From the IMG/VR virus record IMGVR_UViG_3300013936_000013, positions 77,246 through 141,245 of that record: a DNA stretch of 64,000 nucleotides; one strand, given 5' to 3'. Within the stretch, counting starts at the first letter, position 1, and each line of letters starts with the position of its first letter. The position numbers and the translations under genes are program-made. The DNA comes from a virus (taxonomy: Duplodnaviria > Heunggongvirae > Uroviricota > Caudoviricetes). The notes below the pieces were generated by a model, which searched no databases, had not been told where the DNA came from, and saw nothing but the letters and a program-made list of their open reading frames with translations. Positions 1 through 64,000 of this stretch are shown piece by piece.

Positions 1-1
1 C

Positions 2-364
2 ACTGGTGCCGTAAAAGATATGGGTTATGCAAATAATAACAGTATTCGTGATGTAGAATCTATGGTTCAAGCAAATGGTTATGAGCTAGGTAAAGGTTTC
101 TGCAATATGGCACAGGCTATTGATGGAGTAAAATATGATAGCTTGTTAAATACTCAAAATATTATGCATAATGATTGCCAGAATACTCAAAAGATTCTTG
201 ATGCTATTGCTGGTAATAGAATCGCTGATATGCAGAATCAAATTAATAGCTTACAGTTGCAAGCTGCTCTTTGCGGTGTCGTAAGATATCCGCAGGCAAC
301 TACTTATACTGCGGGTTACGCACCTTTTATTGGTAATACACCAAATTGTTGCGCAGGATATTAA
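2..364 (+). CDS. hypothetical protein, 5' end cut by window edge (Asn/Gln-rich, C-terminal CCAGY)
   Basis: Frame of ORF 20..364 is open back to position 2; TAA at 362-364; no recognisable motif. Confidence 0.4.
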   Translation, partial: TGAVKDMGYANNNSIRDVESMVQANGYELGKGFCNMAQAIDGVKYDSLLNTQNIMHNDCQNTQKILDAIAGNRIADMQNQINSLQLQAALCGVVRYPQATTYTAGYAPFIGNTPNCCAGY

Positions 365-377
365 TAGGAGGTAAATA

Positions 378-800
378 ATGGAAATTACAGCAAATGCTGT
401 TTAGACTGTTTTGTCTAATCAAGATGTTCTTTATACTGAAACCGCTGTAACTGGAAATAACTGTTCCATTTTGCATAGATAGGGCAGCGGTTTAGTTACA
501 TTGAGGGGACTAACTTCTCAATGTAGAGCTCGTTTTAAAGCTTATTTTTCTGGTAACATTGCGGTTCCGGCTGATGGGACAGCAGGTCCAGTATCATTAG
601 CTTTTACCTTAAATGGAGAGCCAATAGCAACAACAACTATGATAGCCACTCCTACTGCGGTTTCCGCATTTAATAATGTTTCTGATATGATTTATATTGA
701 TGTTCCTGCAGGATGCTGTTCTTAGGTAGCTGTAAGAAACATAGGAACAGCCGCAATTCAAGTTCAAAATGCAAATTTAATAGTTGAACGGGTAGCATAA
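378..800 (+). CDS. C1q/TNF-like (BclA C-terminal-like) jelly-roll domain protein; 3 in-frame TAG read through
   Basis: AGGAGG at 364-369, ATG 378; in-frame TAG at 402, 480, 723; frame continues to TAA 798-800; product ...FSGNIAVPADGTAGPVSLAFTLNGEPIATTTMIATPTAV...NANLIVERVA resembles BclA/C1q C-terminal domains. Confidence 0.45.
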
Positions 801-811
801 GGAGATAAATC

Positions 812-1021
812 ATGGAAAAATTAAAACATATTAAATGTGATTTAGAAGATTTAGTTTATAAAGAAATAGAAGCAAATGAAGCAACTAATTTAAGACATCT
901 TAATACACATGAACTTGGGGAAGTTATCGATATGATTAAGGATTTGTCTGAATCTATTTACTATTGTTCTATGACAAAAGAGACTGGAACTGATTTACAT
1001 ACTCAGTCAACTAAATCTTAA
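812..1021 (+). CDS. hypothetical small protein (69 aa)
   Basis: AAGGAGA RBS then ATG 812; intact ORF; followed by terminator hairpin. Confidence 0.5.
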   Translation: MEKLKHIKCDLEDLVYKEIEANEATNLRHLNTHELGEVIDMIKDLSESIYYCSMTKETGTDLHTQSTKS

Positions 1022-1027
1022 TAATAA

Positions 1028-1067
1028 TGGGATTCTTATTTAATTATAAGAATCCCATTTTTTTTTG
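1028..1067. terminator. bidirectional rho-independent terminator between convergent genes
   Basis: Inverted repeat gggattctta...taagaatccc followed by T-run. Confidence 0.7.
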
Positions 1068-1577
1068 TTACTCCCAATTAATTTCATTATTCTATTTAGA
1101 CCAGTAAGCATATCCAATACCTATGGCATCTGCTTCATCATCATTGACAACAATACCATAAGTATCTTTCACAAAATCAATATCTGCTTGTTTAAGAGAT
1201 TCACGATAGGTTCCTCTGCCAGTTTTAATTCCACAAGTCTATCGCCAAGAACTGGGATATAAATATTCAATTTTAGTATTTTTGCTATTATCATGTAACA
1301 TAAAGATAATACTTGCTTGAAGCCACATTAATACTTTATGCGTATGAATATTACCAGGTCCAGTCTAACCATTTTCAGGTCTAACTTCTTCCAACACAAC
1401 AGTAGAAATATCTGTATATTTTAAAAAGATATTTTTAACTTCTTCAGTAATCTTATAAATGCGGGAAATGACATCTGTGGAAGAAGCAGTGATACAGCCA
1501 TGTGCTTCTAGTCCCTTATCATTAAAAAGACTCCAACCTGTACTCTTAGTAGATAAATCCAATGCTAAAGTTCTCAT
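1068..1577 (-). CDS. ruvC: RuvC-like Holliday junction resolvase; 3 in-frame TAG
   Basis: N-term MRTLALDLSTKSTGWSLF (RuvC motif); ORF 1365..1577 ends in TAG and the same frame continues through two more TAG to TAA at 1068; C-term ...VNDDEADAIGIGYAY matches RuvC. Confidence 0.75.
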
Positions 1578-1672
1578 TATTTCACCTCTTATTCTAGTAT
1601 ATCATAAAAAAAGTATTTTGTCAAAAAAAATAAGAGAGTAGTTTTTATAACTACTCTCTTATATATTATCTA

Positions 1673-2113
1673 TTAGGTTCCAGTATGACCAAAACCGCCA
1701 GTTCCACGTTCAGTATCTTCTTTATCAAAAGAAGTAACAAAAGTAGGAATAACATTTAAATAAGGCTGAATTACCAACTGAGCAATGCGGTCTTTAGGAT
1801 AAATATCCTGATATTCATTAGAATCATTATGAAGCGGAATACCCACTTCACCGCGATAGTCAGAATCAATTACTGCAACACAATTAGCAAGACGTAAGCC
1901 ACGTTTAGTAGAAAGACCAGACCGGGGATAAATTGCTCCAAAACATCCATTAGGAATTTCCATTGCTAATCCAGTTGGAATCATTTTAGTTTCATGTGGA
2001 GCAATAGTAACAGTATTTTGGATAGCTGCATATAAATCCATGCCTGCAGAATCTGCGGTTCCTCTAGTAGGCAAAACCGCATAATCATTCAATGCTTTAA
2101 TTCCAAGTTCCAT
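1673..2113 (-). CDS. dut: dUTP diphosphatase (trimeric dUTPase)
   Basis: Motifs AGMDLYA, IPTGLAMEIP, RSGLS, GHTGT in the 146-aa ORF. Confidence 0.85.
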   Translation of the reverse strand: MELGIKALNDYAVLPTRGTADSAGMDLYAAIQNTVTIAPHETKMIPTGLAMEIPNGCFGAIYPRSGLSTKRGLRLANCVAVIDSDYRGEVGIPLHNDSNEYQDIYPKDRIAQLVIQPYLNVIPTFVTSFDKEDTERGTGGFGHTGT

Positions 2114-2361
2114 TAGACATCCTCCGCATCATAAGTAACAGTAGTCTGAACAGAAGGCTCTTTAATATCAGTGAAGCTCTTGGTCAAAGTAACCTTATAA
2201 TATTCTTCAATAATTTCGCCTTTTTGCTTTTTTTCTTTATGCTCAGTAGAATACTTAGTTAGAATAAAATTGCCATCTTTCTTAGCATCTTCAATAAGCA
2301 TCATTGCTTCATTTTCAGTATCTACGCGATGGACTTCAGTTGTACTAATAAGAAATTTCAT
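2113..2361 (-). CDS. hypothetical protein (82 aa)
   Basis: Intact ORF overlapping ATGA junction with dut. Confidence 0.5.
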   Translation of the reverse strand: MKFLISTTEVHRVDTENEAMMLIEDAKKDGNFILTKYSTEHKEKKQKGEIIEEYYKVTLTKSFTDIKEPSVQTTVTYDAEDV

Positions 2362-2368
2362 ATAATCC

Positions 2369-2629
2369 TCACAAAATAGTATAATTAATAGTATTGTTAG
2401 AATAAGTTTTTAATTCATGCTCTTGAAGTTTTTTAATTAGACCTTGCAGATAGACTTGAGGTCCAGCAAAAGCTATATCAGTAATTGAATATTCTTTTGC
2501 TTTTTCAGGTAATGTAGTCAGAAAAGTCAAAGTATCTAATGAAAAAGTATCTACAATTTCATGGTCTTCTACGATATCTAGCTTTTGTTTTGCATCAAAA
2601 GGAGCAATCATACATACAATTTTACGCAT
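2369..2629 (-). CDS. hypothetical protein (86 aa)
   Basis: Intact ORF in operon. Confidence 0.5.
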   Translation of the reverse strand: MRKIVCMIAPFDAKQKLDIVEDHEIVDTFSLDTLTFLTTLPEKAKEYSITDIAFAGPQVYLQGLIKKLQEHELKTYSNNTINYTIL

Positions 2630-6588: not shown

Positions 6589-9500
6589 TTAATTTACTGA
6601 GTAGCGTTCATGCTCAAGTTCAATATCACCATCATGGATAGCCATAATTTGATATAACTGATGAGTTTTTGTATGCTTATAAGTTTTAGTCTGGAACATG
6701 TCATCACGTCTAAAGCCAGTTACCATGATTTTAGTTCCTCGTGTAAACCAGCTCTTTTCAACAACTTTCTTACTGCCATCAGGCTGGACTTCAGAAAGTT
6801 GTCTATTGTACATTGCAAAATATTCTTTTGTAAATTTAACATTTACAACACCATCAAGAGTTAGCAAAGAAATAGAAGAACGAGTATCATTTTTTCCAAT
6901 TACAGTACCTATAATTTTGTAAGTTTTATAAATAGGAATATCTTTACCATTTCTCTTGAAAGTTGTTTCAATAACAGGAGTAGTAGGAAGTTCAAAGAAA
7001 TTACTTAAGCCATATTTAACAGTATCAACAGAAGCTAATACATGTTTATGATAATAGAAACACAAACTTTCCATTTCCCAATCAGAAATGCTACCTAAAG
7101 CATATTTATTCCAACTTTCCATGAAAAGCATAGTGTTTAATTGATTAAGAACTTCATTCTGATTATCTTTTAACCAATTTCTGGCATCATCCATAACTTT
7201 CTTATAAATTTTATCCCATGTAGATTGAAGAATACAGGTACAACCATTAATTACAGACAGATTTTCTTCACTGAAATAATCATTATAAAAAGCCAAGCAA
7301 TTATCATCAAAAAGATAACATTTATCTACTTTCTTTTCTTTCAGGTATTTATTAAAAGCAAAAACTCTTTTCTGTAAGTCTAATTCATCAGGAACTAATC
7401 CTTTTTGCATTAGAGTGCTAAAGTTTTGTAGATTTAACTTAGTTTTACCTTCATATACAGACAGAATATAAAAAGCCATAATTGCAAAACGCGGTTCTGC
7501 ACAAATTTCTTTTGCCCAATGTTCATCAACCTTATCAAAAGCTCCTGCTTTAATTAAAGAAATCATAACAGTTTTATTAAGTGGGCAGCGTCTCATAAAA
7601 TCTACAATTCCAGAATAAGGACGTCCAGCAATGATTGCATCAATAATCGGTCCACCAACCTTATTAACACCCTTCATGCCAAACAAAATTTCATTATTTT
7701 CAGGATCAGGTTCAAAACTATAACTAGATTTGTTAATATCAACTAAAGAGATTTTAATACCACGAGAACGAATATCTCCAATAGCTTTAGCTAACTTACC
7801 ATAATCAGTAGTTTTGTCTTTCTTATCGGTTGCATCTTCATCATCATCTTCTTCAGATTCAAGAGATGCACTATTAATAATTAAACAGGCGGTGTTCCAA
7901 TAAATTGGATTCCAACGAGTTGCAATATAAATAGTCTGAAAACCGATGAAACTATAAGCCAATGCGTGTATGACGGAAAAAGAGTAACCTAGCTGGGGAG
8001 CGACACCACACTTCCAAATATACTTACCCAAACAAGGACTTTTTGCTTGCTTAAGAACTTTATCTCGAAGCTCAGGAATCTTAGACATTTGTTTCTTACC
8101 AACAATTTTGCGGGCTGCATTAGCTTCAGCGAGCGTGAAACCGCAAATCTTCTCATCCATTAACATTTTCATCAGCTGCTCTTGGCTTGGCGGGACACCA
8201 TAAGATTGTTTAAAATAAGGTTCAACTGTCTTTTGCTCTTCTTTTGTCAAACCATACTCATTCATTTCTCGATACCACAGATTAATATTATTCTTAAAAC
8301 GGATATATTTTTCCATAGGTGTCTCTTCGCCTTTTTCTGAGGTCATTAGTCTCATCAAGCCATTGGCGTCTGCCATCTCAAAGATGCTGTTCGGTTTAAT
8401 CTTTTTCGCCGCCTGACTTCCGACATCAGAATCAAACTGAAAGATATTCAAAACAGAGTTATCATGCAGAACGTTCCAATACTTCTGGTCATTAATAGGC
8501 AAAACCGCAGGATGAAAATATTTATTATAGACTTCTTTCAAAGAGAGTTCAGGTTCAATTTCACCATGCTCTTGTAAAAGATGGATAGCCTCGACCAATT
8601 TATCTTGGACCTCGGTAACAAGAAAATCATACTTAGTCATTCCAGCGGCCTCGCACATATGGAGGTCATATTGAGTGATAACCTCTCCTTTCGGAGTCTT
8701 CATAAAACATCCAAATTCATACGGGTCTTCATCAAAAAGAATAACACCAGATGCATGAGAGCTGCGTTTATTAACCAGACCCTCAATAGCAATCATAATA
8801 TCCATCAGACCTGGATACTGATTCACTTCCTTTAAAAAAAGCTGATTAGGCTTTCTATCTTTATCAGGATTACCATTAATAACATCTTTCAGCGGCCACA
8901 GGAAACCACGTTCACTAGGAATCAAAGAGGAAATATACTGAGCTGTATCGCTATCAATACCTTCAGGAAACTCTTCGCTACGATAACCGCGGCAAGCAGT
9001 AAGAATTGTGCTTCGAGTACCTTCAGTACCGAAAGTTGCAATTAGAGTGCAACCTAAGTTCTTGCGAGACAGCTCATCAATATTTGCATTAAATTTCTGA
9101 CCACGCTCTTCTTTAATCTTTTTAAGAATTAGAGGACGCTTACTAGGACAGAGATCCAAGTCAATATCACCTAGTTCTGTACGTTCTTTATTCAGATAAC
9201 GCCAGAATGGGAGCTCATACTTAATCGGATCCAACTGAGTAATACCAAGAAGATAATGATTTAAACCAGAACAACTTGAACCACGACCCGCACCAACAAT
9301 ACTACCACAATTCCAAAACAAATCAACATAATGCTGAAGAGTTACAGGATAAGCAAACATATTAGTTTCGAGCTTTTGTCCAATAGTTCTTTTAATATCG
9401 GCTTCCTCTTCTAGTCTTGCCACATAATCAAGATGGTCAAAAGGTGCACCAATATTTTTAATTAAAGAGTTCCAACATTCATTAATCCAATAACGCTCAA

Positions 9501-10551
9501 TCTTATCATCAGACGTAAACATAGATTTAAGAACTGGATAATTTTCAATCTCATCTCTATCAGAATTATTCACGCCAAAAGAACGCTTAGGATAATCACG
9601 AACTTCAACTTTAGGAATAGTTTGTTTATGGAGCAAACTATAATTCTCAATTTTGCTCCAAATTTCCATAGAATTTTGAAACATTTGATTGATAAACAAA
9701 GAATCAAAATTAGATTGGCTTAAATTTTGAAAGATTTCTTCATTGCTCTGAAGATAAGCATACTCATAGAAGTCATCGACCTCACGCTCACCGCCTTTAG
9801 AATTAAGATATGCCTTATGAACATATCTATCTTCTTTCCTTAAATAATGAGCATCAGTACCAATAACCATTTTAAGACCAAAACAATGCGCAATAGAAAC
9901 AAGTCTTTGATTAACCTTAATCTGGTCGGTGGAGCAGCCAGGAGCACACTCAATATAAAAATCTTCTCCAAAGAGTTCCTTGCACATAAGAATAAAATTC
10001 ACAATATCATTATGTGCTTCGACTTTTGAGTTTTCATCATTATGTTCTTCTGCTTTAATTAGATTTAAAGTTTGACTAGATACTTCACCGCCTAAGCAAG
10101 CAGTAGTAGCAATTAAACTATTTGGATATTTATGAACGATTTCTTTCAAATCATCATAAAGAGTAACAACACGCTCCATACCACGGTCATAATAACTATT
10201 CATCCATGCGCGACTAGACAACTCCCGCAAAGCTCTATGACCAGTTTTATTTTTTGCAATCAAAATAAAATGATAATATTTCTGTCCCATTTCGCGAGAA
10301 GGACAAAGATAAATCTCATTACCAAGAGCTACCTTAAAATCAGGATATTTCTCAGCAATCTTTTGAGCATAAATATTAACTTCCATGTGAGCGCAAAGCG
10401 CATCATGGTCAGTAATAGCAATACCCGCCAGACCTAATTCAATCGCTCTATTGATAAGATATTCTGCTCGATTAATGCAATCCAAGAGTCGAATATTCGA
10501 GTATTCTGTGTGCGAATGAATTTCAAACCTTTGGTTTAAAACTTTCAGCAA
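6589..10551 (-). CDS. dnaE: DNA polymerase III alpha-type replicative polymerase with N-terminal PHP domain (TTG start)
   Basis: 1320 aa; PHP motif HSHTEYSNIRLLDC at N-term; no in-frame TAG. Confidence 0.8.
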   Translation of the reverse strand: MLKVLNQRFEIHSHTEYSNIRLLDCINRAEYLINRAIELGLAGIAITDHDALCAHMEVNIYAQKIAEKYPDFKVALGNEIYLCPSREMGQKYYHFILIAKNKTGHRALRELSSRAWMNSYYDRGMERVVTLYDDLKEIVHKYPNSLIATTACLGGEVSSQTLNLIKAEEHNDENSKVEAHNDIVNFILMCKELFGEDFYIECAPGCSTDQIKVNQRLVSIAHCFGLKMVIGTDAHYLRKEDRYVHKAYLNSKGGEREVDDFYEYAYLQSNEEIFQNLSQSNFDSLFINQMFQNSMEIWSKIENYSLLHKQTIPKVEVRDYPKRSFGVNNSDRDEIENYPVLKSMFTSDDKIERYWINECWNSLIKNIGAPFDHLDYVARLEEEADIKRTIGQKLETNMFAYPVTLQHYVDLFWNCGSIVGAGRGSSCSGLNHYLLGITQLDPIKYELPFWRYLNKERTELGDIDLDLCPSKRPLILKKIKEERGQKFNANIDELSRKNLGCTLIATFGTEGTRSTILTACRGYRSEEFPEGIDSDTAQYISSLIPSERGFLWPLKDVINGNPDKDRKPNQLFLKEVNQYPGLMDIMIAIEGLVNKRSSHASGVILFDEDPYEFGCFMKTPKGEVITQYDLHMCEAAGMTKYDFLVTEVQDKLVEAIHLLQEHGEIEPELSLKEVYNKYFHPAVLPINDQKYWNVLHDNSVLNIFQFDSDVGSQAAKKIKPNSIFEMADANGLMRLMTSEKGEETPMEKYIRFKNNINLWYREMNEYGLTKEEQKTVEPYFKQSYGVPPSQEQLMKMLMDEKICGFTLAEANAARKIVGKKQMSKIPELRDKVLKQAKSPCLGKYIWKCGVAPQLGYSFSVIHALAYSFIGFQTIYIATRWNPIYWNTACLIINSASLESEEDDDEDATDKKDKTTDYGKLAKAIGDIRSRGIKISLVDINKSSYSFEPDPENNEILFGMKGVNKVGGPIIDAIIAGRPYSGIVDFMRRCPLNKTVMISLIKAGAFDKVDEHWAKEICAEPRFAIMAFYILSVYEGKTKLNLQNFSTLMQKGLVPDELDLQKRVFAFNKYLKEKKVDKCYLFDDNCLAFYNDYFSEENLSVINGCTCILQSTWDKIYKKVMDDARNWLKDNQNEVLNQLNTMLFMESWNKYALGSISDWEMESLCFYYHKHVLASVDTVKYGLSNFFELPTTPVIETTFKRNGKDIPIYKTYKIIGTVIGKNDTRSSISLLTLDGVVNVKFTKEYFAMYNRQLSEVQPDGSKKVVEKSWFTRGTKIMVTGFRRDDMFQTKTYKHTKTHQLYQIMAIHDGDIELEHERYSVN

Positions 10552-10570
10552 TCTTATGCCCCCTTACTTT

Positions 10571-10596
10571 ATATAATATATTATAACATATTTTTT
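10571..10596 (-). promoter_or_regulatory. conserved extended -10 promoter (TGTTATAAT) upstream of polymerase gene
   Basis: Motif copy tatattataacatatttttt on plus strand. Confidence 0.55.
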
Positions 10597-10855
10597 AGAT
10601 AATTGCAGAAATAGGTCTTAGATTAAATCCTGTTTGAGGAAGTTTCAAAGATTGAATTAAATATCTACAATACCATCCTTCTGAGGTTTCATATAAATCA
10701 GATTCTTTAAAACCATTCTACTTTGCCCAATCATAAGCTAATTCTTTAGCTGTTGGTTTATGGTCAAATTCAGAAACAACGTATAAAATATAATTTTCAA
10801 AACCTTCTGTTCCTGTCTCTGCAGTCTAAATTACATAAGATAAATAATAATACAT
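10595..10855 (-). CDS. hypothetical small protein (86 aa); 2 in-frame TAG
   Basis: GAGG RBS + ATG 10855; open through 2 TAG to TAA 10595. Confidence 0.4.
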
Positions 10856-10862
10856 AAAAACC

Positions 10863-12038
10863 TCATTTCTTAACAATAACTACTTTATCACTTGCGCGGG
10901 TTACTGCCGTATAAAGCCATCGAGCATGTTCTACAATATTAAAAGGAAACTTCTCTTCAATAACTAAAACCTTAGGCCACTCGCTGCCTTGGGACTTGTG
11001 ACAGGTGATAGCGTACCCGAACGTAAATTCCATTGGAACGAGTCCTTTAGTCTTTTCATTCTTACTTAGTTTAAAAGCTAATTTAGAATCAATGCCTTTC
11101 TCACCAGTGAGAATCATACTCTTATCCATTGAGAGTCTACCAAAGTCCTCATTACTGTCAGAAATAAATTGAGTATTAATTGCGGGAATACTACCTCCAC
11201 CGCACCAGTAAGGTAAGTATTTTGGAGAATTAACAGTGTCATGTAAGTAACCAATAGTACCATTAGTCAATGCTCCGCCCTCATTAGAGAACGTATCCCA
11301 ATAATTTCTAAGGCAAATAACTTTATCACCATCTTCAGGCATATTTCCTCTACCAAGTAGTGACCGCATCTGGTTATTAACTGCAATGCGGGTAGCATTA
11401 GTTCCAACAAGCACCTGATCCGCCCACATAAGCATACCCGTATTTAAGTCTGCTTTGTTAAAAACTTGTACTTCATTACCATGCATTTCTACTAGAGGTT
11501 TCATTGCACGAATATCCATACTAATTCTAATAATTTCTGATTCTGCGGCTTGCCGCATAATTTCATCCAAAAAGACATGAGGGTGGTCAAGTAGATGATT
11601 ATTGCTATTAGGGTCAATAGTAGGAAGTTGAAAAGGGTCTCCCAAACAAATAACATAAATATTCTTATAACTAAAAAGCAAGTCAATTAAGTCCTTACTT
11701 GCCATAGATACTTCATCTACAACGACAAATTTATAATCAATCATGGCTTTTGGTTTCTTATAAAAAGTACCATCGCCTTTTGGAAAGCTATCATACAAGA
11801 GCTTATGCAGAGTCATTGCATTTTTATTTCCCTTTTTGTGCAATACTTCTGCGGCTTTGCCTGTAAAAGCCGTATAGACTACGTCATCTTCGTCTGCATC
11901 TAGAGCCTCAATAATAAAACGGACTAGAGTTGATTTGCCTGTGCCCGCATACCCACTGATAACAGTGAACTTTTCTCCTGCAAGATATCTATCTAGAGCA
12001 ATCTTAAGTCCTTCAAGCTGTTTTGTGGTAAGAGTCAT
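10863..12038 (-). CDS. SF1B DNA helicase (Dda/RecD-like)
   Basis: Walker A GYAGTGKST, Walker B VVVDEVSM, C-terminal helicase motifs. Confidence 0.7.
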   Translation of the reverse strand: MTLTTKQLEGLKIALDRYLAGEKFTVISGYAGTGKSTLVRFIIEALDADEDDVVYTAFTGKAAEVLHKKGNKNAMTLHKLLYDSFPKGDGTFYKKPKAMIDYKFVVVDEVSMASKDLIDLLFSYKNIYVICLGDPFQLPTIDPNSNNHLLDHPHVFLDEIMRQAAESEIIRISMDIRAMKPLVEMHGNEVQVFNKADLNTGMLMWADQVLVGTNATRIAVNNQMRSLLGRGNMPEDGDKVICLRNYWDTFSNEGGALTNGTIGYLHDTVNSPKYLPYWCGGGSIPAINTQFISDSNEDFGRLSMDKSMILTGEKGIDSKLAFKLSKNEKTKGLVPMEFTFGYAITCHKSQGSEWPKVLVIEEKFPFNIVEHARWLYTAVTRASDKVVIVKK

Positions 12039-12295
12039 TCATCTTCACCTCGAAATTCTTTATCTAAATCTGCTAGTTTCTTCTTCCAACGCCGCAATCT
12101 AACTTTCTTTGTTCTATTTCTTATACGAGTCTCTTCTTTTGACTCATTGCATTTTCTTCTCGAAAGTTCATCATCTCTGTACCCATAACCACAATGGTCA
12201 CAGTTGCCGCAAATACAAAATTCATTTTCTTTTTCAATATTTTCAATGACAGATTTTATAGCGTTTCTTCTAATTTCATATTCATTTTTATCCAT
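12035..12295 (-). CDS. small Cys-rich Zn-ribbon protein (86 aa)
   Basis: CxxC...CxxC pattern; intact ORF with GAGGT RBS. Confidence 0.5.
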   Translation of the reverse strand: MDKNEYEIRRNAIKSVIENIEKENEFCICGNCDHCGYGYRDDELSRRKCNESKEETRIRNRTKKVRLRRWKKKLADLDKEFRGEDE

Positions 12296-12339
12296 TTTTT
12301 ATACCTCTATATTATTATACTATAAAATAATAAAAAAAT

Positions 12340-12385
12340 CAAAAGTCAATTTTTGAATTGAAAAACTCTAAACTGACTTTTGATT
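12340..12385. terminator. terminator hairpin
   Basis: tcaaaagtca...tgacttttga inverted repeat. Confidence 0.55.
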
Positions 12386-12419
12386 TTAATATACGATAGA
12401 GTGCGCTACAAGCATCTCA

Positions 12420-13573
12420 TTAAAAGAAATATTTACTGCTATCAATTACTTGATAATCACTAATAATTAATTGAGGATACTTTCTACCATTCCAATTATT
12501 CTCACAACATTTACATACTGCTTCAATTTCTTTCCAGCCAGTAGTAGTAAATGCTTCAATATCTTCTTCAGTTCCTGCAAATTTAATAAGAGATAAACCA
12601 TTATTTAAAGTAATCTTAAGAGTTTGCTTTGCCATAACTGCAAAATTAGAATTGGTTACTTTAAATTTCATTACTACATAAGGACGTTCAACATCTTGAC
12701 CCCAATAACTATTCATTTCAGCAATATCAAAAATTACATTATTTTCAACCGTTGCTTCATCAAAAAGATAATCAACTTGATACATAGGTTCATGCGGATA
12801 CTCATCAATAATAGCGTCCACAGTTGCCATAAACTCATCTATACTATCTGCACGAATACCAAGACCTGCAGCATTTTCGTGTCCCTGACAATATAATGTT
12901 CCTGCGCATTGATCTAATACTTCTTTAAAATTCATTAAACCAAATTTAGTATATCCACGCATAGAACCTTCATATGAAGGAATTTTTTTACTATCTTCTG
13001 TTGTATAAATATTCTTAGTTAAAATACAACAAGGACGTTGATAAACATTAATAAATTTATTAGCAATTAAGCCACGAATTTCGGAAGGTAGCTCATTAGC
13101 ATCTTCAAGCAGGAAGAGTAAGAAGTTATGTTCATTAAGCATATCTTCTTCTTCAATTTTTTTCTTAAGGCGCTCCATGCCTGCTTCAACCGCTCTGTCT
13201 TGATGATTTTTAGTATTATTAACTGCTCTCATGGCGTTAAGAACAAGCAAATCTTCTTGCCCTTTAGCTCCTCTCTTGTTTGAAGGAACTTTATTAAATG
13301 CCTTAAAATTAAGCATTGAATTAAATAAAAGCTGTTTGTCTTCTGGTGTACCACTTCGAGTCATTGCATTGACAAAAGGAACAACAAAGAATGCAGCTCC
13401 ATATGAAGTGCAAGCTAATTCTTTTTCATAAGGGATATAATCAGTTTTAGAAAGAGGAAAACTATTTTTATCAAGCATATACTCAATAAAGGGGTTCTTG
13501 ATATTTTCTTTTCTAAAACCTTTGTTAATAAGATATTTTGTTTCAATAGATAATAGACTCATCATATCTGCGT
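12420..13573 (-). CDS. recJ: RecJ-like ssDNA exonuclease, exon 2 (DHHA1 domain, GHENAAG motif)
   Basis: DHHA1 motif CQGHENAAGLGI; proposed 3' splice site leaves exon 2 starting agacgcagatATG... so the join reads DLVALGL|DADMMSLL (cf. RecJ DLVALGTVADVVPL). Confidence 0.65.
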
Positions 13574-16378: not shown

Positions 16379-16380
16379 AA

Positions 16381-18505: not shown

Positions 18506-18508
18506 AAA

Positions 18509-47345: not shown

Positions 47346-47414
47346 TTTTAATAACAATACAAACTTTTGATTAAATAATAAATAGCAAAAAATAAGGTTT
47401 TATACTTCGAGAGG

Positions 47415-47507: not shown

Positions 47508-47511
47508 TTTT

Positions 47512-48980: not shown

Positions 48981-48981
48981 T

Positions 48982-56200: not shown

Positions 56201-56793
56201 CCTAGGGGAACCGCATCACCTTTTTTATACCATGAAAGCTCATGTGTAGTATTATCAAATTCAATATCTAAGTCTTCAAGAGCATTTAGATTTGCTACTG
56301 TTTCTTTTAATGCGGCGAGGTCATCGGCGGAAGCATAGTTAGGTAAAATACCATTAACTTCATCCTTAGTATAATAACCAGATAAGTCGGTCGCAATGGA
56401 TACACCACCAGTAATTCTTTCACCATTGCTTAGTAGATAGAATTTACTATCATCATCAATTTCATAGCCATCTGCTTTCTTTTGGGTGTTCTAATCTAAA
56501 GTATCTAGATAATCTAGAATTAGACTCAGCTGAGTTCTAACTGCAGTACCCGCAGATGTATATTTTTCGCCATTAAATTTATCAAATTTTTCATTAGTTA
56601 AGCCTTGACGAATATCCTCTAGTTCAGTTTGGCGATTATTACTTGAAAAAGTAGGATATTTAGTTAAAAGATTGTCAACTCTATCATTCAGAGTCTTCAT
56701 TGAATCTGACAGATTTCCGCCAGTCTCACCGACATATTCTTTGTTTGCTTCTGCTAGTAGGCGCAAGGCTTCTACAATAGATATTTTACTCAT
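50215..56793 (-). CDS. giant 2192-aa structural/adhesin-like protein (Ig-like and LRR-like regions; probable tail fibre or host-recognition protein); 12 in-frame TAG
   Basis: ORFs 56491.., 55498.., 53593.., 52411.., 51379.., 50386.. all share one frame; every gap between them was translated by hand and holds only TAG codons, no TAA/TGA; TAA in-frame just upstream of ATG 56793; stop TAA 50215. Confidence 0.7.
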
Positions 56794-57404
56794 ATCTGTT
56801 TACCATAGACCTCCTATAACATTTGTTTTACTTCAAGGTCATCTACAAAAATTAGCTCAAAACTCGCAGAATCTTTAATTTTTTCCATGTCATCTACATC
56901 AGGATTATATAATCCATCGCCAATAGAAAGATTAGTATTGATTGTAGAATTCCACCTATAACATTCTGTATTAGTGGTAGTATCTACATCAATAAAAATT
57001 AAAGAAAATTGAATGCGACCAGGAGCAGTAGTAATTGAGCCTTTAATTATCCAAGAAAATTCAACCATATCAGGATTATCTTCCATGACTTGCATATCCT
57101 CAATTGGGTAGAATCCATCTACCTTAGCTCCCGCATTATACCATTTTACTAATTTAGATGAACATTTTAAAATATCATATCCATCAATAAATCTAGGGCA
57201 ATTAAAAGTGATTGCATTAGAGTTATGGTCTGTGCGGATACCTACAACAGAATGAAATCCAGGCTGTAAAGTAAATGTACGAGTTAATGCATCTACAAGG
57301 ATAGGCGGTTCCTCATCTTGGAGAAAATTAGAAGTATCATTATTTATAATAGTGTCAAGACTTTGAGTAGAAATATCATTGATTAGTGATAAATAATCTG
57401 TCAT
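56790..57404 (-). CDS. hypothetical structural-module protein (204 aa); 1 in-frame TAG
   Basis: AAAAGGAGAG RBS + ATG 57404; reads through TAG 56814 to TGA 56790, overlapping start of giant gene. Confidence 0.5.
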
Positions 57405-57856
57405 AAAGTCTCTCCTTTTATCTCTTGTTTAATTCTTTCACAATCTTGAAGAATTTGATTACACAACATTGCATATTTCTAACACGCTTTGGTTAGTTGA
57501 GTAGAGGTATCTTCAGCAGGATTGTTTACAATATTGCTTGTGTAACCTGATTGTTTAATAAAAACTGTTTCAGCATTTGTAGTAATTAAATCACCACAAT
57601 AAATACTAACTTCAAAACTAGGACTTTTAATAACTTCTGCAGGAATATAACATTGATTATCTTTAAGACCATCTAATCCTAGTGTCTATTGATAAGTTTT
57701 CCCTTTATATGTAAATAAAGCAAAAACTGGATTTACCCATTCAGAAGTTTTAAAATTAAATGTTGCAATAAGATAGTTTTTACTACCTGCAACAAAATAA
57801 TCATTTGTAGTTTCTTTAGTTAGTTTTTGATGTGAAACATTAAAACGAATTTCCAT
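57401..57856 (-). CDS. hypothetical structural-module protein (151 aa); 2 in-frame TAG
   Basis: AAAGGAGGTAAAAGG RBS + ATG 57856; ATGA overlap with next gene; no ORF visible under the standard code. Confidence 0.45.
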
Positions 57857-57965
57857 AATCCTTTTACCTCCTTTATTATTCTATTAAAAATTAAAATATT
57901 ATTTTTATGATTTCCGCCCAAAAAGAAAAGAGGTTGAGATAAACCCAACCTCTAAAGAATAAATC

Positions 57966-60075: not shown

Positions 60076-60489
60076 TTACTGCATCATTTTTGCAATAACA
60101 GAATTAATCATCTTACCGTCCGCCTTACCCTTTAGAGCCTTCATAGCAGGCGGAATTACCTCTTTCTTATTCATGGACTTAATATCTGTAAACATTTCAG
60201 AAATAAAATTCTGAATTTCATCTTCAGACATCATCTTAGGAAGGAACTGAGAAACAAAAGCAATCTCAGATGTAAGTGCGGTTTTCTCAGCTTCATTGCG
60301 CGCATAGCCTAAGGTCTCCCGCAATGCCTTAACTTCTTTTTGGAAAGTTGCGATTACTTTTGCTTCATCACCACCATCTTTAATTACCTTCTTAGCTACT
60401 GACAAAAAGTAGCTTGCATGATTTTCAACCTGCTTATCACCGCTCTTTAGAGCTGCAATCCGCATTTCATTTAGAGTATCAATAATCAT
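60076..60489 (-). CDS. yqeY: GatB/YqeY-domain protein
   Basis: 137 aa, all-helical with KALRETLGYARNEAEKTALTSEIAFVSQFLP...AMKALKGKADGKMI pattern typical of YqeY/GatB C-terminal domain. Confidence 0.5.
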   Translation of the reverse strand: MIIDTLNEMRIAALKSGDKQVENHASYFLSVAKKVIKDGGDEAKVIATFQKEVKALRETLGYARNEAEKTALTSEIAFVSQFLPKMMSEDEIQNFISEMFTDIKSMNKKEVIPPAMKALKGKADGKMINSVIAKMMQ

Positions 60490-60512
60490 TTTTCTGTTTT
60501 CCTTTCCCTTAT

Positions 60513-60540
60513 TGTATATATATTATAACATTTTTTTAAG
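60513..60540 (-). promoter_or_regulatory. conserved TGTTATAATATATA promoter
   Basis: Plus attgtatatatattataacatttttttaag. Confidence 0.5.
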
Positions 60541-62194: not shown

Positions 62195-62268
62195 TGGTTG
62201 AGCCAGCAGGATTCGAACCTACGATGGAGGAGTCAAAGTCCTCAGCCTTACCACTTGGCGATGGCTCA
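62195..62268 (-). tRNA. tRNA-Gln (anticodon UUG), CCA encoded
   Basis: Acceptor TGAGCCA/TGGCTCA (U1-A72), anticodon stem GAGGA/TCCTC, loop CTTTGAC, T-arm GTAGG-TTCGAAT-CCTGC. Confidence 0.8.
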
Positions 62269-62274
62269 ATATAT

Positions 62275-62346
62275 AGGACTATTTGGATTCGAACCAAAAA
62301 ATACTTGTGTCAGAGACAAGTGCCTTAACCATTTGGCAATAGTCCT
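62275..62346 (-). tRNA. tRNA-Gln (anticodon CUG)
   Basis: Acceptor AGGACTA/TAGTCCT, anticodon stem ACTTGT/ACAAGT, loop CTCTGAC, T-arm TTTGG-TTCGAAT-CCAAA. Confidence 0.75.
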
Positions 62347-62418: not shown

Positions 62419-62517
62419 ATGGTTGGGGATGAGAGACTCGAACTCTCACACCATCCGTCAGAGGGATGGGCTCTGGTGGTTTTAGAGACCACTGCTTTAA
62501 CCGTTAAGCAAATCCCC
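62419..62517 (-). tRNA. amber-suppressor tRNA (anticodon CUA), tRNA-Gln-like acceptor, ~96 nt (99 with encoded CCA), with 28-nt extra region
   Basis: Acceptor TGGGGAT/ATCCCCA (U1-A72, as in tRNA-Gln), D-arm GCTT-AACGGTTA-AAGC, anticodon stem GTGGT/ACCAC, loop CTCTAAA (U33, CUA, A37), then 28-nt insertion containing hairpin CCATCC-CTCTGAC-GGATGG (Gln CUG-type loop), T-arm GAGAG-TTCGAGT-CTCTC, A73, CCA. Confidence 0.7.
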
Positions 62518-62682
62518 ATTATCTTTATTTCTCTTAGATTGCTTTGCGTTATATCGCTTAGCCGCCTTGCAATTTGAACATCCATGTTTATTTTTGCAAT
62601 AACAAAGACAATAATCTTCTAACCAAAAATGGTATGGAATTGAAGGTTTAATTTTACGACGAGGAATCTTTTTACCTTTCAT
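62497..62682 (-). CDS. hypothetical basic Zn-ribbon protein (61 aa), overlaps 5' end of suppressor tRNA by ~20 nt
   Basis: Intact ORF with CxxC...CxxC; reality uncertain because of tRNA overlap. Confidence 0.25.
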   Translation of the reverse strand: MKGKKIPRRKIKPSIPYHFWLEDYCLCYCKNKHGCSNCKAAKRYNAKQSKRNKDNGDLLNG

Positions 62683-62935: not shown

Positions 62936-62938
62936 ATA

Positions 62939-63012
62939 TGGAGGGCAGCCGGGGAGTTGAACCCCGCTCCTTGGATTAACAGTCCATTGCACTACCGATG
63001 TGCTAGCCGCCC
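62939..63012 (-). tRNA. tRNA-Asn (anticodon GUU), CCA encoded
   Basis: Acceptor GGGCGGC/GCTGCCC, D-arm GCAC/GTGC, loop CTGTTAA, T-arm CGGGG-TTCAACT-CCCCG. Confidence 0.7.
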
Positions 63013-63022
63013 AAAATGAGGT

Positions 63023-63160
63023 TTATGTAACCTCAAAATCAAGAACAATATAATTGCGCTGGTAAAAATTCAACTCAATCAGAGTATGAACTACACACCA
63101 ATGCTTGGTGTTATAATCATCAAGGTAAATAATAGTGATAGTCAAATTAGCAGTAGTCAT
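63023..63160 (-). CDS. hypothetical small protein (45 aa)
   Basis: AAAAGGAG RBS + ATG 63160; terminator-like hairpin gaggtt-acataa-acctc at its 3' end. Confidence 0.3.
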   Translation of the reverse strand: MTTANLTITIIYLDDYNTKHWCVVHTLIELNFYQRNYIVLDFEVT

Positions 63161-63202
63161 AAACAAACTCCTTTTTAACTTTTCTATTTGTTTTCCTTTA
63201 TT

Positions 63203-63230
63203 ACATATATATTATAACATTTTTTTAAGA
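63203..63230 (-). promoter_or_regulatory. conserved TGTTATAATATATA promoter
   Basis: Plus ttacatatatattataacatttttttaag. Confidence 0.5.
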
Positions 63231-63251
63231 AAAAATCAATAGATATTTTTC

Positions 63252-63596
63252 TTAACGCCTATAAAAGTAAGGATACCAATACTTTTTAAGAAATTCCTCT
63301 TCAGACAGAGCCGCCATTTTTTCATACCATGACCATCCTAAAGTTTTTGCTTTTTCACAGTAGCTAGCATATCTAGCTTTTGCTTCATCAATAGACTCAT
63401 AAGAGATATAATCAGTAATATCCCAAGAGTCATTAAACTTTTGATAATCATTTTTTGCGCGAGGAGCGGTTTCCTCAGCTTCTATGCTTCTATTAAGCAC
63501 ACGTCTATATCGCCGATTAGCTCGGATTCGCGCTTCTTTATTACTGCCATGCCGCGGATGCTTACAAATAGGATGTTTCTTATAGCTTCTACTCAT
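63252..63596 (-). CDS. hypothetical basic protein (114 aa)
   Basis: Intact ORF, Arg/Lys-rich N-terminus. Confidence 0.4.
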   Translation of the reverse strand: MSRSYKKHPICKHPRHGSNKEARIRANRRYRRVLNRSIEAEETAPRAKNDYQKFNDSWDITDYISYESIDEAKARYASYCEKAKTLGWSWYEKMAALSEEEFLKKYWYPYFYRR

Positions 63597-63613
63597 AGTA
63601 CCCTCTCCTTTTA

Positions 63614-63688
63614 GTATGTCCTTTGAGACTTGAACTCAAACTCTATTCCGTATGAAGAAATTGCATTAACCAATTATGCTAAGGACAC
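63614..63688 (-). tRNA. tRNA-Met (anticodon CAU)
   Basis: Acceptor GTGTCCT/AGGACAT, D-arm GCAT/ATGC, anticodon stem ATTTC/GGAAT, loop TTCATAC, T-arm TTGAG-TTCAAGT-CTCAA. Confidence 0.7.
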
Positions 63689-63879
63689 ATATTCAAGGCG
63701 AATATATAATCACTAGTCTTTTAATTAAATCATTAATATTAAAAATATCAGTACATTATGTTATATATTTGCTGTATTCGCCTTATTTTCAACAAGACCA
63801 TTAATATTATTACATCTTCTTAAATCCCAAATTTAATGATTTTTAATAAATAATATTTTGCTGTGATGGTCTTTACTAC

Positions 63880-63954
63880 TGGGGGTGAGTAAGAGAATCG
63901 AACTCTTATGAAAGGAACCACAATCCTCCGTTCTACCATTGAACTAACAAACCC
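63880..63954 (-). tRNA. tRNA-His-like (anticodon GUG) with extra 5' G and two acceptor-stem mismatches, CCA encoded
   Basis: D-arm GTTC-AATGGTA-GAAC, anticodon stem GAGGA/TCCTT, loop TTGTGGT, T-arm AAGAG-TTCGATT-CTCTT, C73 with possible G-1; acceptor GGTTTGT/ACTCACC has U-C and U-U mismatches. Confidence 0.45.
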
Positions 63955-63971
63955 ATAAGACTAAAACGTCT

Positions 63972-64000
63972 TGGTAGAATGTGTCAGATTCGAACTGCTC
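63972..64000 (-). tRNA. partial tRNA (3' half only; cut by window edge)
   Basis: tgg-t-agaatgt-gtcag-attcgaa-ctg... = CCA, acceptor, T-arm CAG..-TTCGAAT-CTGAC. Confidence 0.4.

Follow-up and report, generated by a model that had tools for sequence, protein, structure and literature searches.

We find that the window (the whole 64,000-nt stretch of phage DNA analyzed here) uses TAG as a sense codon and that its amber suppressor tRNA carries, on a long variable arm, a second hairpin with a glutamine-type anticodon loop. The whole is best explained by a code-15 phage that translates TAG as Gln through its own tRNA(CUA), with recoding uneven among its genes and a pseudo-anticodon arm on the suppressor; we put the probability of this reading at roughly 90%. 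TAG = Gln as a phenomenon is already known from crAss-like, Lak, and Phass-1 phages, and genetic code 15 reportedly goes back to work by Ivanova in 2014. A natural suppressor with a second, Gln-type anticodon hairpin is a recurrent and apparently undescribed design. We take the phage genome to be ∼135 kb, because IMG/VR contigs of 134–137 kb hold an identical tRNA with identical flanks. Features of the window are given in Table 1.

Table 1. Coordinates of recoded genes, tRNAs, and tRNA elements in the window
Feature	Position	Strand	Details
RuvC-like resolvase	1068-1601	-	3 TAG; PHROGs E 8e-16
NrdD	3562-5859	-	1 TAG, in N-terminal ATP-cone
Replication block (DnaE-like polymerase, RecD-like, RecJ-like, primase, DnaB-like, AAA_24)	6589..20545	-	almost TAG-free
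GIY-YIG gene	13742-14467		1 TAG; Pfam GIY-YIG
GIY-YIG homing endonuclease gene	21705-22667	-	8 TAG; Pfam GIY-YIG
HNH-type homing endonuclease gene	27679..28593	-	7 TAG; between GyrA and GyrB C-terminal part
GIY-YIG gene	29244-29966		1 TAG; Pfam GIY-YIG
RNase H	31724-32266	-	1 TAG; Pfam RNase_H
Endolysin (Peptidase_M15_3 + PG_binding_1)	32706-33389	-	8 TAG, 7 within homologue-aligned part; Pfam; start codon uncertain
DGR cassette	45157..49512	+	target gene 2 TAG, Avd-like 1, TR, RT 3, downstream ORF 3-4
DGR RT	47751-48980	+	3 TAG; Pfam RVT_1
2,192-codon structural gene	50215-56799	-	12 TAG; full-length homologues P0121-P0124
Two small structural-module genes	56790..57883	-	1 + 2 TAG; TGA ends both
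YqeY-like protein (homologous to GatB tail domain)	60076..60522	-	Pfam PF09424, E 1.3e-10; adjoins tRNA array
tRNA-Gln(UUG)	62195..62268	-	next in tRNA array
tRNA-Gln(CUG)	62274..62346	-	adjoins suppressor tRNA
Amber suppressor tRNA(CUA)	62420..62518	-	99 nt, CCA encoded; Rfam tRNA 55.5 bits
Variable-arm hairpin (proposed pseudo-anticodon arm)	62449..62471	-	GCCCAUCC-CUCUGAC-GGAUGG(U)G; MFE fold; RNAalifold
Proposed pseudo-anticodon CUG (Gln)	62459..62461	-	loop positions 3-5
Real anticodon CUA	62483..62485	-	loop CUCUAAA, 5-bp closing stem GUGGU/ACCAC

TAG as a sense codon

There are 64 in-frame TAG codons in the window, mostly in late, lysis, DGR, and homing-endonuclease genes, a pattern far beyond chance. 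An earlier note on this DNA had claimed genome-wide reassignment of TAG to Gln (code 15). Coding density, Gln-enriched alignment columns, and codon comparison support the claim, although recoding proves uneven, and all of the note's TAG counts (for RuvC, RNase H, NrdD, endolysin, GIY-YIG genes, RT, and the 2,192-codon gene) were reproduced. All 50 curated genes terminate in TAA (39) or TGA (11); as the note had held, these codons still act as stops, TGA ending ORFs at 42681 and 56790, and also at 30144. With a greedy ORF caller, coding density rises from 0.80 (code 11) to 0.92 when TAG is sense, most strongly in the late region at 48–56 kb (0.73 to 0.99 under table 15). Taking TGA as sense gives 0.81; taking TAA as sense gives 0.89, yet strand coherence drops from 0.84 to 0.70.

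The 64 TAGs fall in conserved, full-length, syntenic genes, none of which is interrupted by TAA or TGA, and the phage encodes its own, conserved tRNA(CUA). The pattern is repeated in two independently assembled recoded relatives (L005 and L006), and the same suppressor tRNA also occurs on two further contigs (L012 and L020). These observations make it extremely improbable that the TAGs are real stops produced by pseudogenes, assembly errors, or low-level programmed readthrough, even though the greedy caller still reaches its density of 0.80 with genes fragmented under code 11.

TAG use differs greatly among gene classes: 0.64 per 1000 codons in replication genes, 7.9 in late genes, and 15.7 in homing endonucleases. 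In the late genes, where TAG appears, CAG is depleted. The scarcity of TAG in the replication block makes it compatible with the standard code as well as with code 15, and the genes of the DGR cassette require TAG as sense throughout. An unmodified host could translate the replication genes, and the suppressor would be needed for lysis, structural, DGR, and homing-endonuclease genes. As has been suggested for other phages with code 15, the uneven use of TAG may work as a gate on the timing of translation. Three TAGs sit 7–11 codons ahead of TAA or TGA (in the RuvC-like gene, ThyX, and gene 56790-57428) and could stop translation early in infection; the TAG of gene 56790-57428 aligns to CAG in L007, an unrecoded relative.

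In these respects the window phage resembles the crAss-like, Lak, and other gut phages in which code 15 has been described (Borges et al. 10.1101/2021.08.26.457843) and proven by proteomics (Peters 2022, PMC9523058). In those phages, too, TAG clusters in structural and lysis genes, early genes can be read with the standard code, tRNA(CUA) is phage-encoded, and TAA and TGA terminate. The window phage belongs to another lineage. Its DnaE-type polymerase shares 40% identity with the polymerases of SPbeta-like Bacillus phages, no nucleotide match to the window was present among 50,697 phage records, and the window holds no RF2 gene.

The residue inserted at TAG

Sequence comparison indicates that the window phage translates TAG as glutamine (code 15), TAA and TGA being its probable sole terminators. 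Replacements between TAG and other codons involve CAA or CAG in 22 of 25 cases in L005 (92% amino acid identity) and in 25 of 43 in L006; of 27 TAG positions, the 92%-identical relative retains TAG at 17 and has Gln codons at the others. For the 2,192-codon gene, CAA or CAG occurs in at least one relative at nine of the 12 TAG sites. Across 118 endolysin homologues, seven TAG columns contain 49% Q against a background of 3.1%, and four of them reach 63%–96%. The earlier note had placed TAG at a conserved Gln in two motifs, and both are as quoted and align to Q: in the RT hallmark LSIGSYLS[TAG] (TAG at 48429-48431), the TAG aligns with Q of the solved Bordetella DGR RT and is CAA in two relatives, and in the PG-binding motif AVIAW[TAG]KNHGL (TAG at 32766-32768), the FQ position is Q in solved structures.

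Could TAG encode another residue? A class-II-like long arm might be usable by SerRS, LeuRS, or TyrRS, giving Ser, Leu, or Tyr; unconverted Glu would result if ND-GluRS charges the tRNA and GatCAB fails to convert it; and pyrrolysine is a further candidate. The suppressor's variable region is indeed 28 nt long, ARAGORN outputs "Pyl(cta)" for it, and at TAG sites in unrecoded L007, E ranks second among the aligned residues (Q 9, E 7, T 3, Y 2, and four singletons; thus 7/25). An empirical-substitution likelihood nevertheless strongly favors Q (log-likelihood −152), with E next at −348, S at −448, and Y and L lower still. In relatives, TAG swaps mostly with CAA, which is two mutations distant, whereas its one-step neighbors (GAG, AAG, TAT/TAC, TCG, TTG, TGG) are nearly absent (GAG twice; AAG and TAT a few times). 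Together with the endolysin columns, a Gln-type acceptor stem, and an arm loop that matches the Gln anticodon and is unlike the short Ser-type loop, this makes any other residue very unlikely. The "Pyl" label merely reflects ARAGORN's codon table; the suppressor lacks every feature of tRNA-Pyl, and the window showed no pyl genes.

The suppressor tRNA and its variable arm

The suppressor is a 7/5 cloverleaf with acceptor stem UGGGGAU/AUCCCCA and discriminator A73, and its MFE fold is a five-arm cloverleaf. Its anticodon is CUA, since the Rfam tRNA model shows the loop CUCUAAA; the default ARAGORN label, "???(taaa)", is a miscall, and ARAGORN -i gives cta. The note's description of a CUA tRNA with a Gln-like acceptor holds: the acceptor identity set (U1-A72, G2-C71, G3-C70, and G10) is that of bacterial tRNA-Gln, and the gene lies 14 kb from the DGR RT. 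Despite diverged flanks, 97 of the 99 nt are identical in L006.

The long extra arm had been overlooked in the earlier note. CM alignment shows a 25-nt insertion in the variable region. The 7-nt loop of the arm, CUCUGAC, has the same sequence as the anticodon loop of the neighboring tRNA-Gln(CUG) and reads as a complete Gln anticodon loop (C32 U33 C34 U35 G36 A37 C38), and we propose that the hairpin is a pseudo-anticodon arm. Class II tRNAs (Ser, Leu, Tyr, Sec) and the allo-tRNAs with long variable arms (Mukai 2016, PMC5389517) share the five-arm cloverleaf and base-paired variable arm, but their arm loops are short (3–5 nt) and not conserved.

The arm defines a recurrent class. Scans in which it was not specified returned ∼50 distinct phage tRNA(CUA) sharing this design, located in TAG-recoded loci. 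In two sets of 27 and 23 distinct long-arm tRNA(CUA), the hairpin tip bears CUG or UUG in 26/27 and 21/23, respectively. The loop consensus is [C/U]-U-C-U-G-A-N, with U33 in 22 of 26 and A37 in 25 of 26, and a triplet-anchored analysis finds the closing pairs of the arm intact in 26/26, 26/26, and 20/26. More than 15 different arm stems occur, with CG/GC swaps, and stem length ranges from 2 to 8 bp; for 17 homologous tRNAs, RNAalifold predicts the arm with six to seven double compensatory changes per pair. As a negative control, only five of 109 Leu, Ser, and Tyr tRNAs of the same loci have their own anticodon in such a loop. Loci with long-arm tRNA(CUA) increase in coding density from 0.66 to 0.84 when TAG is sense (27 of 28 gain), compared with 0.881 to 0.888 in control loci (two of 29 gain). 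Opal suppressors show the corresponding feature: 12 tRNA(UCA) carry GUCCAAA or CUCCAAA, with the Trp anticodon CCA, in the same arm, and the tRNA-Sec hits of that scan lack CCA in an anticodon-type arm loop.

Many recoded phages have an ordinary short-loop tRNA(CUA) (35 distinct sequences), and the arm is therefore unnecessary for recoding; in many phages both suppressor types stand in tandem. One of these is Phass-1 (OQ749652; NCBI "Caudoviricetes code 15 clade"; Babkin 2023, PMC10607447), which resembles the window phage: its genome is about 136 kb, it has a DNA polymerase III alpha subunit, a class III RNR, dUTPase, PhoH, and a large tRNA array, and it reads TAG as Gln in about 40 ORFs, with Clostridia as its predicted host. 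One annotated Phass-1 tRNA-Sup-CTA, of 88 nt, has the same CUG variable-arm hairpin. Phass-1 shows no nucleotide similarity to the window, the two suppressor bodies differ, and the window has the long type only. The arm is not mentioned in Babkin (2023, PMC10607447), and no description of a pseudo-anticodon variable arm in such tRNAs was found in the searchable literature, including the searched text of the code-15 phage papers.

Possible roles of the arm

No phage synthetase is present in the code-15 gut phages or in the window phage, so host charging is assumed. By the account of Borges et al. (10.1101/2021.08.26.457843), charging of phage suppressors is an open question and noncanonical tRNAs are expected. 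The pseudo-anticodon arm may explain how host enzymes charge these tRNAs. The phage's own tRNA(CUA) would decode TAG, and the pseudo-anticodon would be an identity or affinity element recruiting the cognate anticodon-reading synthetase. Within the host's Gln-charging enzyme (GlnRS, or a nondiscriminating GluRS followed by GatCAB), the arm may bind the domain that reads the anticodon and so make up for the real anticodon having A in place of G36.

E. coli supE, a tRNA-Gln(CUA), is of ordinary build, 75 nt long with a variable loop of 5 nt, and its loss of G36 weakens recognition by GlnRS. The window suppressor has the same CUA anticodon and Gln acceptor set, but its second hairpin restores a CUG loop. 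Its discriminator A73, in place of the G73 of E. coli tRNA-Gln, counts against the proposed role of the arm. An engineered parallel exists: in amber suppressors built by Mukai (2020, PMC7590224), a cognate anticodon stem–loop at the V-arm tip raises aminoacylation and specificity. Those tRNAs are synthetic, with an allo-tRNA (9/3) chassis, a His anticodon, and a synthetase to which an additional anticodon-binding domain was fused; the suppressors described here are natural and 7/5 and would rely on unmodified host enzymes.

That the engineered system needed the fused domain counts against a charging role, as does the fact that the variable arm of a normal L-shaped tRNA does not reach the anticodon-binding domain. 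The variation in stem length makes it unlikely that one synthetase molecule holds the CCA end and the arm in a fixed geometry, and no known structure shows a synthetase holding a V-arm. Short-loop suppressors function without the arm, on their own or in tandem with the long type. It is thus possible, if doubtful, that the arm has no part in charging and is either a relic of origin (a tRNA-Gln or tRNA-Trp gene that gained a second anticodon arm) or a binder of something else: a modification enzyme, a phage protein, or, as a decoy, a host anticodon nuclease. A relic would be expected to degenerate, yet this loop hardly changes among tRNAs that differ widely in their acceptor, D, T, and V stems, and the arm stems covary. 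Gln and Trp are both charged by class I enzymes for which the anticodon is a major identity element, and the triplet tracks the inserted amino acid twice independently (CUG/UUG with CUA suppressors and CCA with UCA suppressors), which favors charging. A decoy for another reader of Gln and Trp anticodons remains among the noncharging roles.

The CUG hairpin might also work part-time as the anticodon arm, the five-way junction switching which hairpin is stacked under the D stem; the synthetase would then meet CUG and the ribosome CUA, or the one tRNA would serve CAG as well as UAG codons. The two hairpins are adjacent in the junction, and both have the full anticodon-loop signature (7-nt loop, U33, and A37). 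In all members, however, the canonical 5-bp stem, the single nucleotide 26 ahead of it, and normal D-arm spacing belong to the CUA arm alone; using the CUG hairpin would leave a variable loop of 0–7 nt and a stem of 2–8 bp, and the association with TAG-recoded loci requires CUA decoding. We consider such switching improbable.

The YqeY-like gene is kept in the same place in L005 and L006, and its product may be an accessory factor of Gln-tRNA formation.

In-frame TAG and the genetic code of the window

The window has a G+C content of 34%, with nearly all genes on the minus strand, and from its gene content it reads as part of a phage genome. A replication block (DnaE-type polymerase, RecD-like helicase, DnaB-like helicase, GyrA/GyrB, NAD ligase, NrdD/NrdG, dUTPase, and ThyX) is accompanied by a lysis pair, a DGR cassette, a very large structural gene, and an array of 12 tRNA genes. 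The 50 genes that we curated contain 64 in-frame TAG codons, spread over 20 genes. Conserved genes of the window are broken by these codons alone and become continuous once TAG is read as sense. Every in-frame TAG count reported in the earlier note was reproduced, and its family assignments were upheld by Pfam and PHROGs.

Coding density was calculated for each code with a simple greedy ORF caller. Reading TAG as sense (table 15) raises the density from 0.80 (code 11) to 0.92. That TAA and TGA still terminate, as had been claimed, is borne out by the curated gene ends (39 TAA and 11 TGA) and by a density with TGA as sense of 0.81 vs. 0.80 under code 11. Reading TAA as sense yields 0.89 but destroys strand coherence, as expected if an AT-rich genome is deprived of its most frequent stop codon. 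Both the observation and the interpretation of the earlier note (TAG as Gln, code 15) are correct, and annotation of this genome and its relatives requires table 15; without it, lysis, structural, and DGR genes look broken.

The use of TAG differs greatly among gene classes: 0.64 per 1000 codons in replication and early-type genes (33 genes), 7.9 in late, lysis, and DGR genes (13 genes), and 15.7 in homing-endonuclease genes (four genes). Out of frame (frames 2 and 3), early genes hold about 13 TAG per 1000 codons, and in-frame TAG is therefore depleted ∼20-fold in these genes. The data show that TAG is avoided by early genes and relied on by late genes. The Gln codons vary as well: Early genes prefer CAG over CAA (192 vs. 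142), late genes have 109 CAA vs. 38 CAG, and the homing endonucleases 32 vs. two. CAG occurs at 7.5 per 1000 codons in late genes, where TAG is present, vs. 17.5 in early genes, and TAG seems to have displaced CAG in the recoded genes. Following the published model for code 15, the suppressor tRNA would build up during infection, and the late and lysis genes would then become translatable.

Coordinates of features discussed in the text (positions within the window)
Feature	Position	Strand	Remarks
RecJ-like gene halves	14630-15292 and 12420-13613		Split by GIY-YIG ORF 13742-14467
GyrB-like gene halves	30144-31703 and 28684-29121		Split by GIY-YIG ORF 29244-29966
Endolysin	32706-33389	-	
RNA ligase (PF09414)	36671-37924		
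Nucleotidyltransferase-like protein	40893-41660		
DGR target gene	45157-46857		
DGR variable repeat	46724-46816		3′ end of target gene
Avd-like ORF	46873-47229		
DGR template repeat	47415-47507		
DGR RT	47751-48980	+	
Structural gene	50215-56799	-	2,192 codons; 12 in-frame TAG
DUF2828/DUF7788 protein	57966-59522		
YqeY-like protein	60076-60522	-	GatB C-terminal tail homologue, directly beside the tRNA array
tRNA-Tyr(GUA) call	61070-61141	-	72 nt
Suppressor tRNA(CUA)	62420-62518	-	

The amino acid inserted at TAG

Judged from alignments, TAG is shown to be a Gln codon in this phage, and we put the probability that it encodes Gln and is decoded by the tRNA(CUA) of the window at about 0.9-0.95. 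Two motifs had been proposed to place TAG on a conserved Gln, and both hold: The TAG at 32766-32768, in the PG_binding_1 motif of the endolysin, falls on the Gln of FQ, which is Q in five out of five PDB chains, and that at 48429-48431, in the DGR RT hallmark, falls on the Gln of SQ in an alignment with the Bordetella bRT (8ub7). The other two of three TAGs in the RT gene correspond to D and E of the solved RT, and the TAG of RNase H sits in a variable loop that carries no information on the residue. Alignments to one structure each are too thin as a residue test.

Searching with the endolysin yielded 120 homologues, with Q as the top residue at four of seven TAG columns (115, 87, 85, and 76 of 120). 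The two closest were rejected as proof of Gln and left out because their Q calls are circular, being their own TAG translated by code 15; after this exclusion we relied on homologues sourced from NCBI or JGI and on codon-level comparison. Among the other 118 homologues the TAG columns are 49% Q compared with a background of 3.1%, an enrichment also seen in the subset sourced from NCBI and JGI.

The strongest residue test is a codon-level comparison with relatives found via the 2,192-aa protein. Two of these are recoded, L005 (92% amino-acid identity) and L006 (79%); the third, L007 (58%; JGI 3300035501 Ga0376455_0000012, a 139.6-kb contig), is syntenic and free of in-frame TAG in all aligned genes, the proteins being 58-63% identical to those of the window. 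Window TAG codons are matched in L005 by 17 TAG, nine CAA/CAG, and one GAA, and reciprocally the TAG codons of L005 are matched in the window by 17 TAG, 13 CAA/CAG, and two GAA. The corresponding codons in L006 are 10 TAG, 12 CAA/CAG, and seven others, and the residues in L007 are Q (nine), E (seven), T (three), Y (two), H, G, S, and K (one each), and one gap. The profile of the relatives at TAG resembles that at the window's own CAA/CAG codons. Scoring candidate residues by substitution frequencies from the same alignments gives a log-likelihood of -152 for Q and -348 for the runner-up, E, a lead of about 195 units; taken alone, L007 puts Q 11 units ahead of E. CAA, two mutations distant from TAG, accounts for most of the replacements, and one-step neighbors of TAG are rare, the pattern expected of synonymous drift between three codons for Gln.

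Code 15 has been predicted repeatedly in phages, with proteomic proof, the detection of Gln at TAG, in crAss-like phages only (PMC9523058), and the NCBI taxonomy contains a "Caudoviricetes code 15 clade." Taken alone, the recoding adds a new phage lineage to a known phenomenon.

Suppressor tRNAs with an anticodon-like variable arm

ARAGORN labels the suppressor gene "???(taaa)" by default; the "3-nt intron" that it gives with the option -i is an artefact. The Rfam tRNA model matches the gene with 55.5 bits and aligns an acceptor stem UGGGGAU/AUCCCCA, an anticodon stem GUGGU/ACCAC with the loop CUCUAAA (the anticodon is therefore CUA), and a variable region enlarged by a 25-nt insertion. The proposal of a CUA tRNA with a Gln-like acceptor stands: The anticodon is CUA, and the weak pair U1-A72 together with G2-C71, G3-C70, and G10 matches the tRNA-Gln identity set; the discriminator is A73 rather than the G73 of that set. 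The gene adjoins tRNA-Gln(CUG) and tRNA-Gln(UUG). A tRNA-Gln anticodon is YUG, with U35 and G36, and the real anticodon here, CUA, lacks G36; a CUG loop is found in the variable arm. The minimum-energy fold is a five-arm cloverleaf with a variable arm GCCCAUCC-CUCUGAC-GGAUGG(U)G, whose 7-nt loop has the same sequence as the anticodon loop in the adjoining tRNA-Gln(CUG). This phage-encoded tRNA(CUA), with its Gln-type acceptor stem, is shown to be the window's sole candidate decoder of TAG.

Other identities for such a molecule were considered. A long variable arm is a SerRS determinant, and a serine-type class II tRNA or allo-tRNA would share this feature; allo-tRNAs have acceptor/T stems of 8/4 or 9/3, and the 7/5 architecture found here, together with TAG columns that are not Ser, rules them out. 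In tRNA-Pyl the variable loop has 3 nt, the anticodon stem is 6 bp long, and the D loop is small, and pylS/pylBCD genes accompany it. This identity is ruled out by the 28-nt variable region and 5-bp anticodon stem, and we found no pyl genes among the annotated ORFs of the window. Nor can the extra arm be an intron, as its length falls short of that of bacterial group I introns and its place is outside the anticodon loop. Elsewhere in the array, the drawing by ARAGORN of the tRNA-Tyr(GUA) call has three acceptor-stem mismatches; bacterial tRNA-Tyr is normally class II, and this gene may be degenerate or unusual.

We scanned IMG/VR for similar tRNAs, leaving the variable arm unspecified. The first scan required only UGGGG at the 5′ end and the loop CUCUAAA, followed after a long gap by the T loop; with a structural filter afterwards, it yielded 28 distinct tRNA sequences with 27 distinct variable regions of 18-28 nt. 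The tip of the hairpin presents a Gln triplet in 26 of these 27 (25 CUG and one UUG). The lone exception is a tRNA(CUA)-like gene on a 607-kb contig (L037, IMG/VR UViG_3300046665_000548) with an 18-nt variable region, GGCGGCCAAAAGCCCGGC, lacking a Gln triplet; it may be another kind of suppressor in a huge phage. A second scan without an acceptor constraint found 23 further long-arm tRNA(CUA) with quite different bodies, 21 of which have CUG or UUG at the tip.

In a triplet-anchored alignment, closing pairs 1, 2, and 3 are intact in 26, 26, and 20 of 26 sequences, with CG/GC/UA swaps, and the pairing is destroyed when the 3′ partner is slid. The loop follows (C/U)32-U33-C34-U35-G36-A37-N38 (U33 in 22 out of 26, A37 in 25 out of 26), which is an anticodon-loop signature. 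RNAalifold independently predicts the same five arms for 17 of these tRNAs, and three variable-arm pairs show double compensatory changes in seven, six, and seven sequences. As a control, only five out of 109 Leu, Ser, and Tyr tRNAs of the same loci have their own anticodon in such a loop. Reading TAG as sense raises the coding density of the long-arm loci from 0.66 to 0.84 (a gain in 27 out of 28), compared with 0.881 to 0.888 (a gain in two out of 29) for control loci of chance hits. Both controls support the link of the arm to recoded loci.

Short-loop tRNA(CUA) are also present (35 distinct sequences). The first pair is U1-A72 in 22 out of 28 long-arm tRNAs, 20 of the 28 having G73; in the short-loop class it is a U1·C72 mismatch in 11 out of 28, G1-C72 in seven, and U1-A72 in five. 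The two classes may be two routes to Gln identity. A short and a long suppressor are paired in the phage Phass-1 and in loci L010/L016, L078, L210/L261, and L212.

The same pattern with the loop CUUCAAA was used to search for opal suppressors, and detected 12 tRNA(UCA), all with G73 (loci L290, L302, L343, L369, L351, L364, L331, L339, L275, L316, L346, and L329). Their variable-arm loop is GUCCAAA or CUCCAAA, with GUCCAAG and GUCCAAC once each; this is the loop of the Trp anticodon (CCA). At several of these loci the coding density rises when TGA is read as sense. The tRNA-Sec genes caught by the opal pattern do not have CCA in an anticodon-type loop. The extra hairpin displays the anticodon of the exact residue inserted, Gln in amber and Trp in opal suppressors.

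Possible role of the arm, relatives, and other genes

Gln and Trp synthetases belong to class I, and the anticodon is a major identity element for both. The anatomy of the variable-arm hairpin suggests that it may offer a pseudo-anticodon to the enzyme by which Gln anticodons are read, which would be GlnRS or, in hosts without GlnRS, a nondiscriminating GluRS followed by GatCAB. We infer such a role because the loop is conserved while its surroundings vary, because in each of two independent reassignments the triplet agrees with the amino acid inserted, because both synthetases are class I and anticodon-dependent, and because an engineered variable-arm pseudo-anticodon improves charging (Mukai, PMC7590224). 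The molecule would be a natural bipartite tRNA, in which CUA or UCA reads the stop codon and an arm with CUG/UUG (Gln) or CCA (Trp) faces the host synthetase; we give this reading even odds, and a function of the arm in charging is a proposition we hold with about equal belief and doubt.

The main difficulty is geometry. The stems vary from 2 to 8 bp and with them the distance from loop to CCA end, so that a rigid complex with one enzyme is less plausible than tethering or avidity, a second enzyme molecule, or a hairpin switch under the D arm. U1-A72 is needed by GatCAB, and its retention, together with the YqeY-like gene, may speculatively hint at a transamidation route. This gene has the same position in the recoded L005 and L006; the unrecoded L007 has a distant copy elsewhere. 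An Asp/Glu-tRNA amidotransferase-like protein has been reported in a Zeta crAss-like phage (PMC12386605).

How phage suppressor tRNAs are charged by host synthetases is an acknowledged open question (Borges et al., 10.1101/2021.08.26.457843). The interest of the suppressor architecture is that it recurs, covaries, follows the amino acid, and bears on this question, which can be reduced to a direct experiment on one loop. If the pseudo-anticodon reading is true, the arm would represent a tRNA identity element of a new class, would explain the mislabeling of such genes by standard tRNA finders, and would offer synthetic biology a ready-made natural template for orthogonal suppressor tRNAs with a preserved amino-acid identity. 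In the full texts searched, we found only the engineered version of a pseudo-anticodon arm described; coverage of subscription papers was poor, and an earlier description of a natural one is possible.

Among described phages of this kind, Phass-1 (OQ749652) comes closest. Its 136-kb genome encodes a Pol III alpha-type polymerase, a class III RNR, and a large tRNA array; it reads TAG as Gln, and its predicted host belongs to Clostridia (PMC10607447). By megablast of 18.7 kb of the window, it has no nucleotide sequence in common with the window, the suppressor tRNA likewise being unmatched, and the window phage is therefore a new member of this kind, outside the proposed genus Phassvirus. At 62445-62610 Phass-1 has a tandem tRNA-Sup-CTA pair 6 nt apart, an ordinary 72-nt gene (L385:2923-2994 in our locus coordinates) and an 88-nt gene with a CUG arm (L385:3001-3088). 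The paper does not mention tRNA structure, the gene being merely annotated "tRNA-Sup-CTA" (PMC10607447).

The tRNA array of L007 has no suppressor, with only tRNA-Gln(UUG) at the corresponding place. Since this relative is unrecoded yet syntenic, recoding was gained or lost inside this phage clade. The suppressor of L006 is identical to that of the window at 97 of 99 positions, while flanks and proteins have diverged; IMG/VR contigs of 134-137 kb with identical suppressor and flanks are probably the same species as the window phage or a sister species. A search from a 169-aa fragment gave distant relatives only. Among 50,697 phage records, neither 18.7 kb of the window (megablast) nor the full length of its suppressor tRNA found a match. 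Among the matches listed in a scan of genome contigs, which are otherwise chance hits, there is one valid tRNA, on a 2.2-kb contig (L184) binned with an Acutalibacteraceae MAG; a Clostridia host is weakly indicated. The L007 locus also codes for a Thg1-like protein and a major-vault-protein-like protein.

Among the other genes of the window, the RuvC-like protein was identified by PHROGs, was missed by Pfam, and had nothing significant in a PDB sequence search. The topo B gene had been described as intron-split: Its GyrB-like halves do flank a GIY-YIG ORF, but Rfam finds no group I intron in this gap or in that of the RecJ-like gene, even at E ≤ 0.1. Three RNA-handling genes near the tRNA array or in the accessory region have zero in-frame TAG after their start codons. 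The DGR repeats (93 nt each) are 83% identical, with the mismatches visible in the alignment located at template adenines, and the template has a TAG triplet where the variable repeat has TGG.
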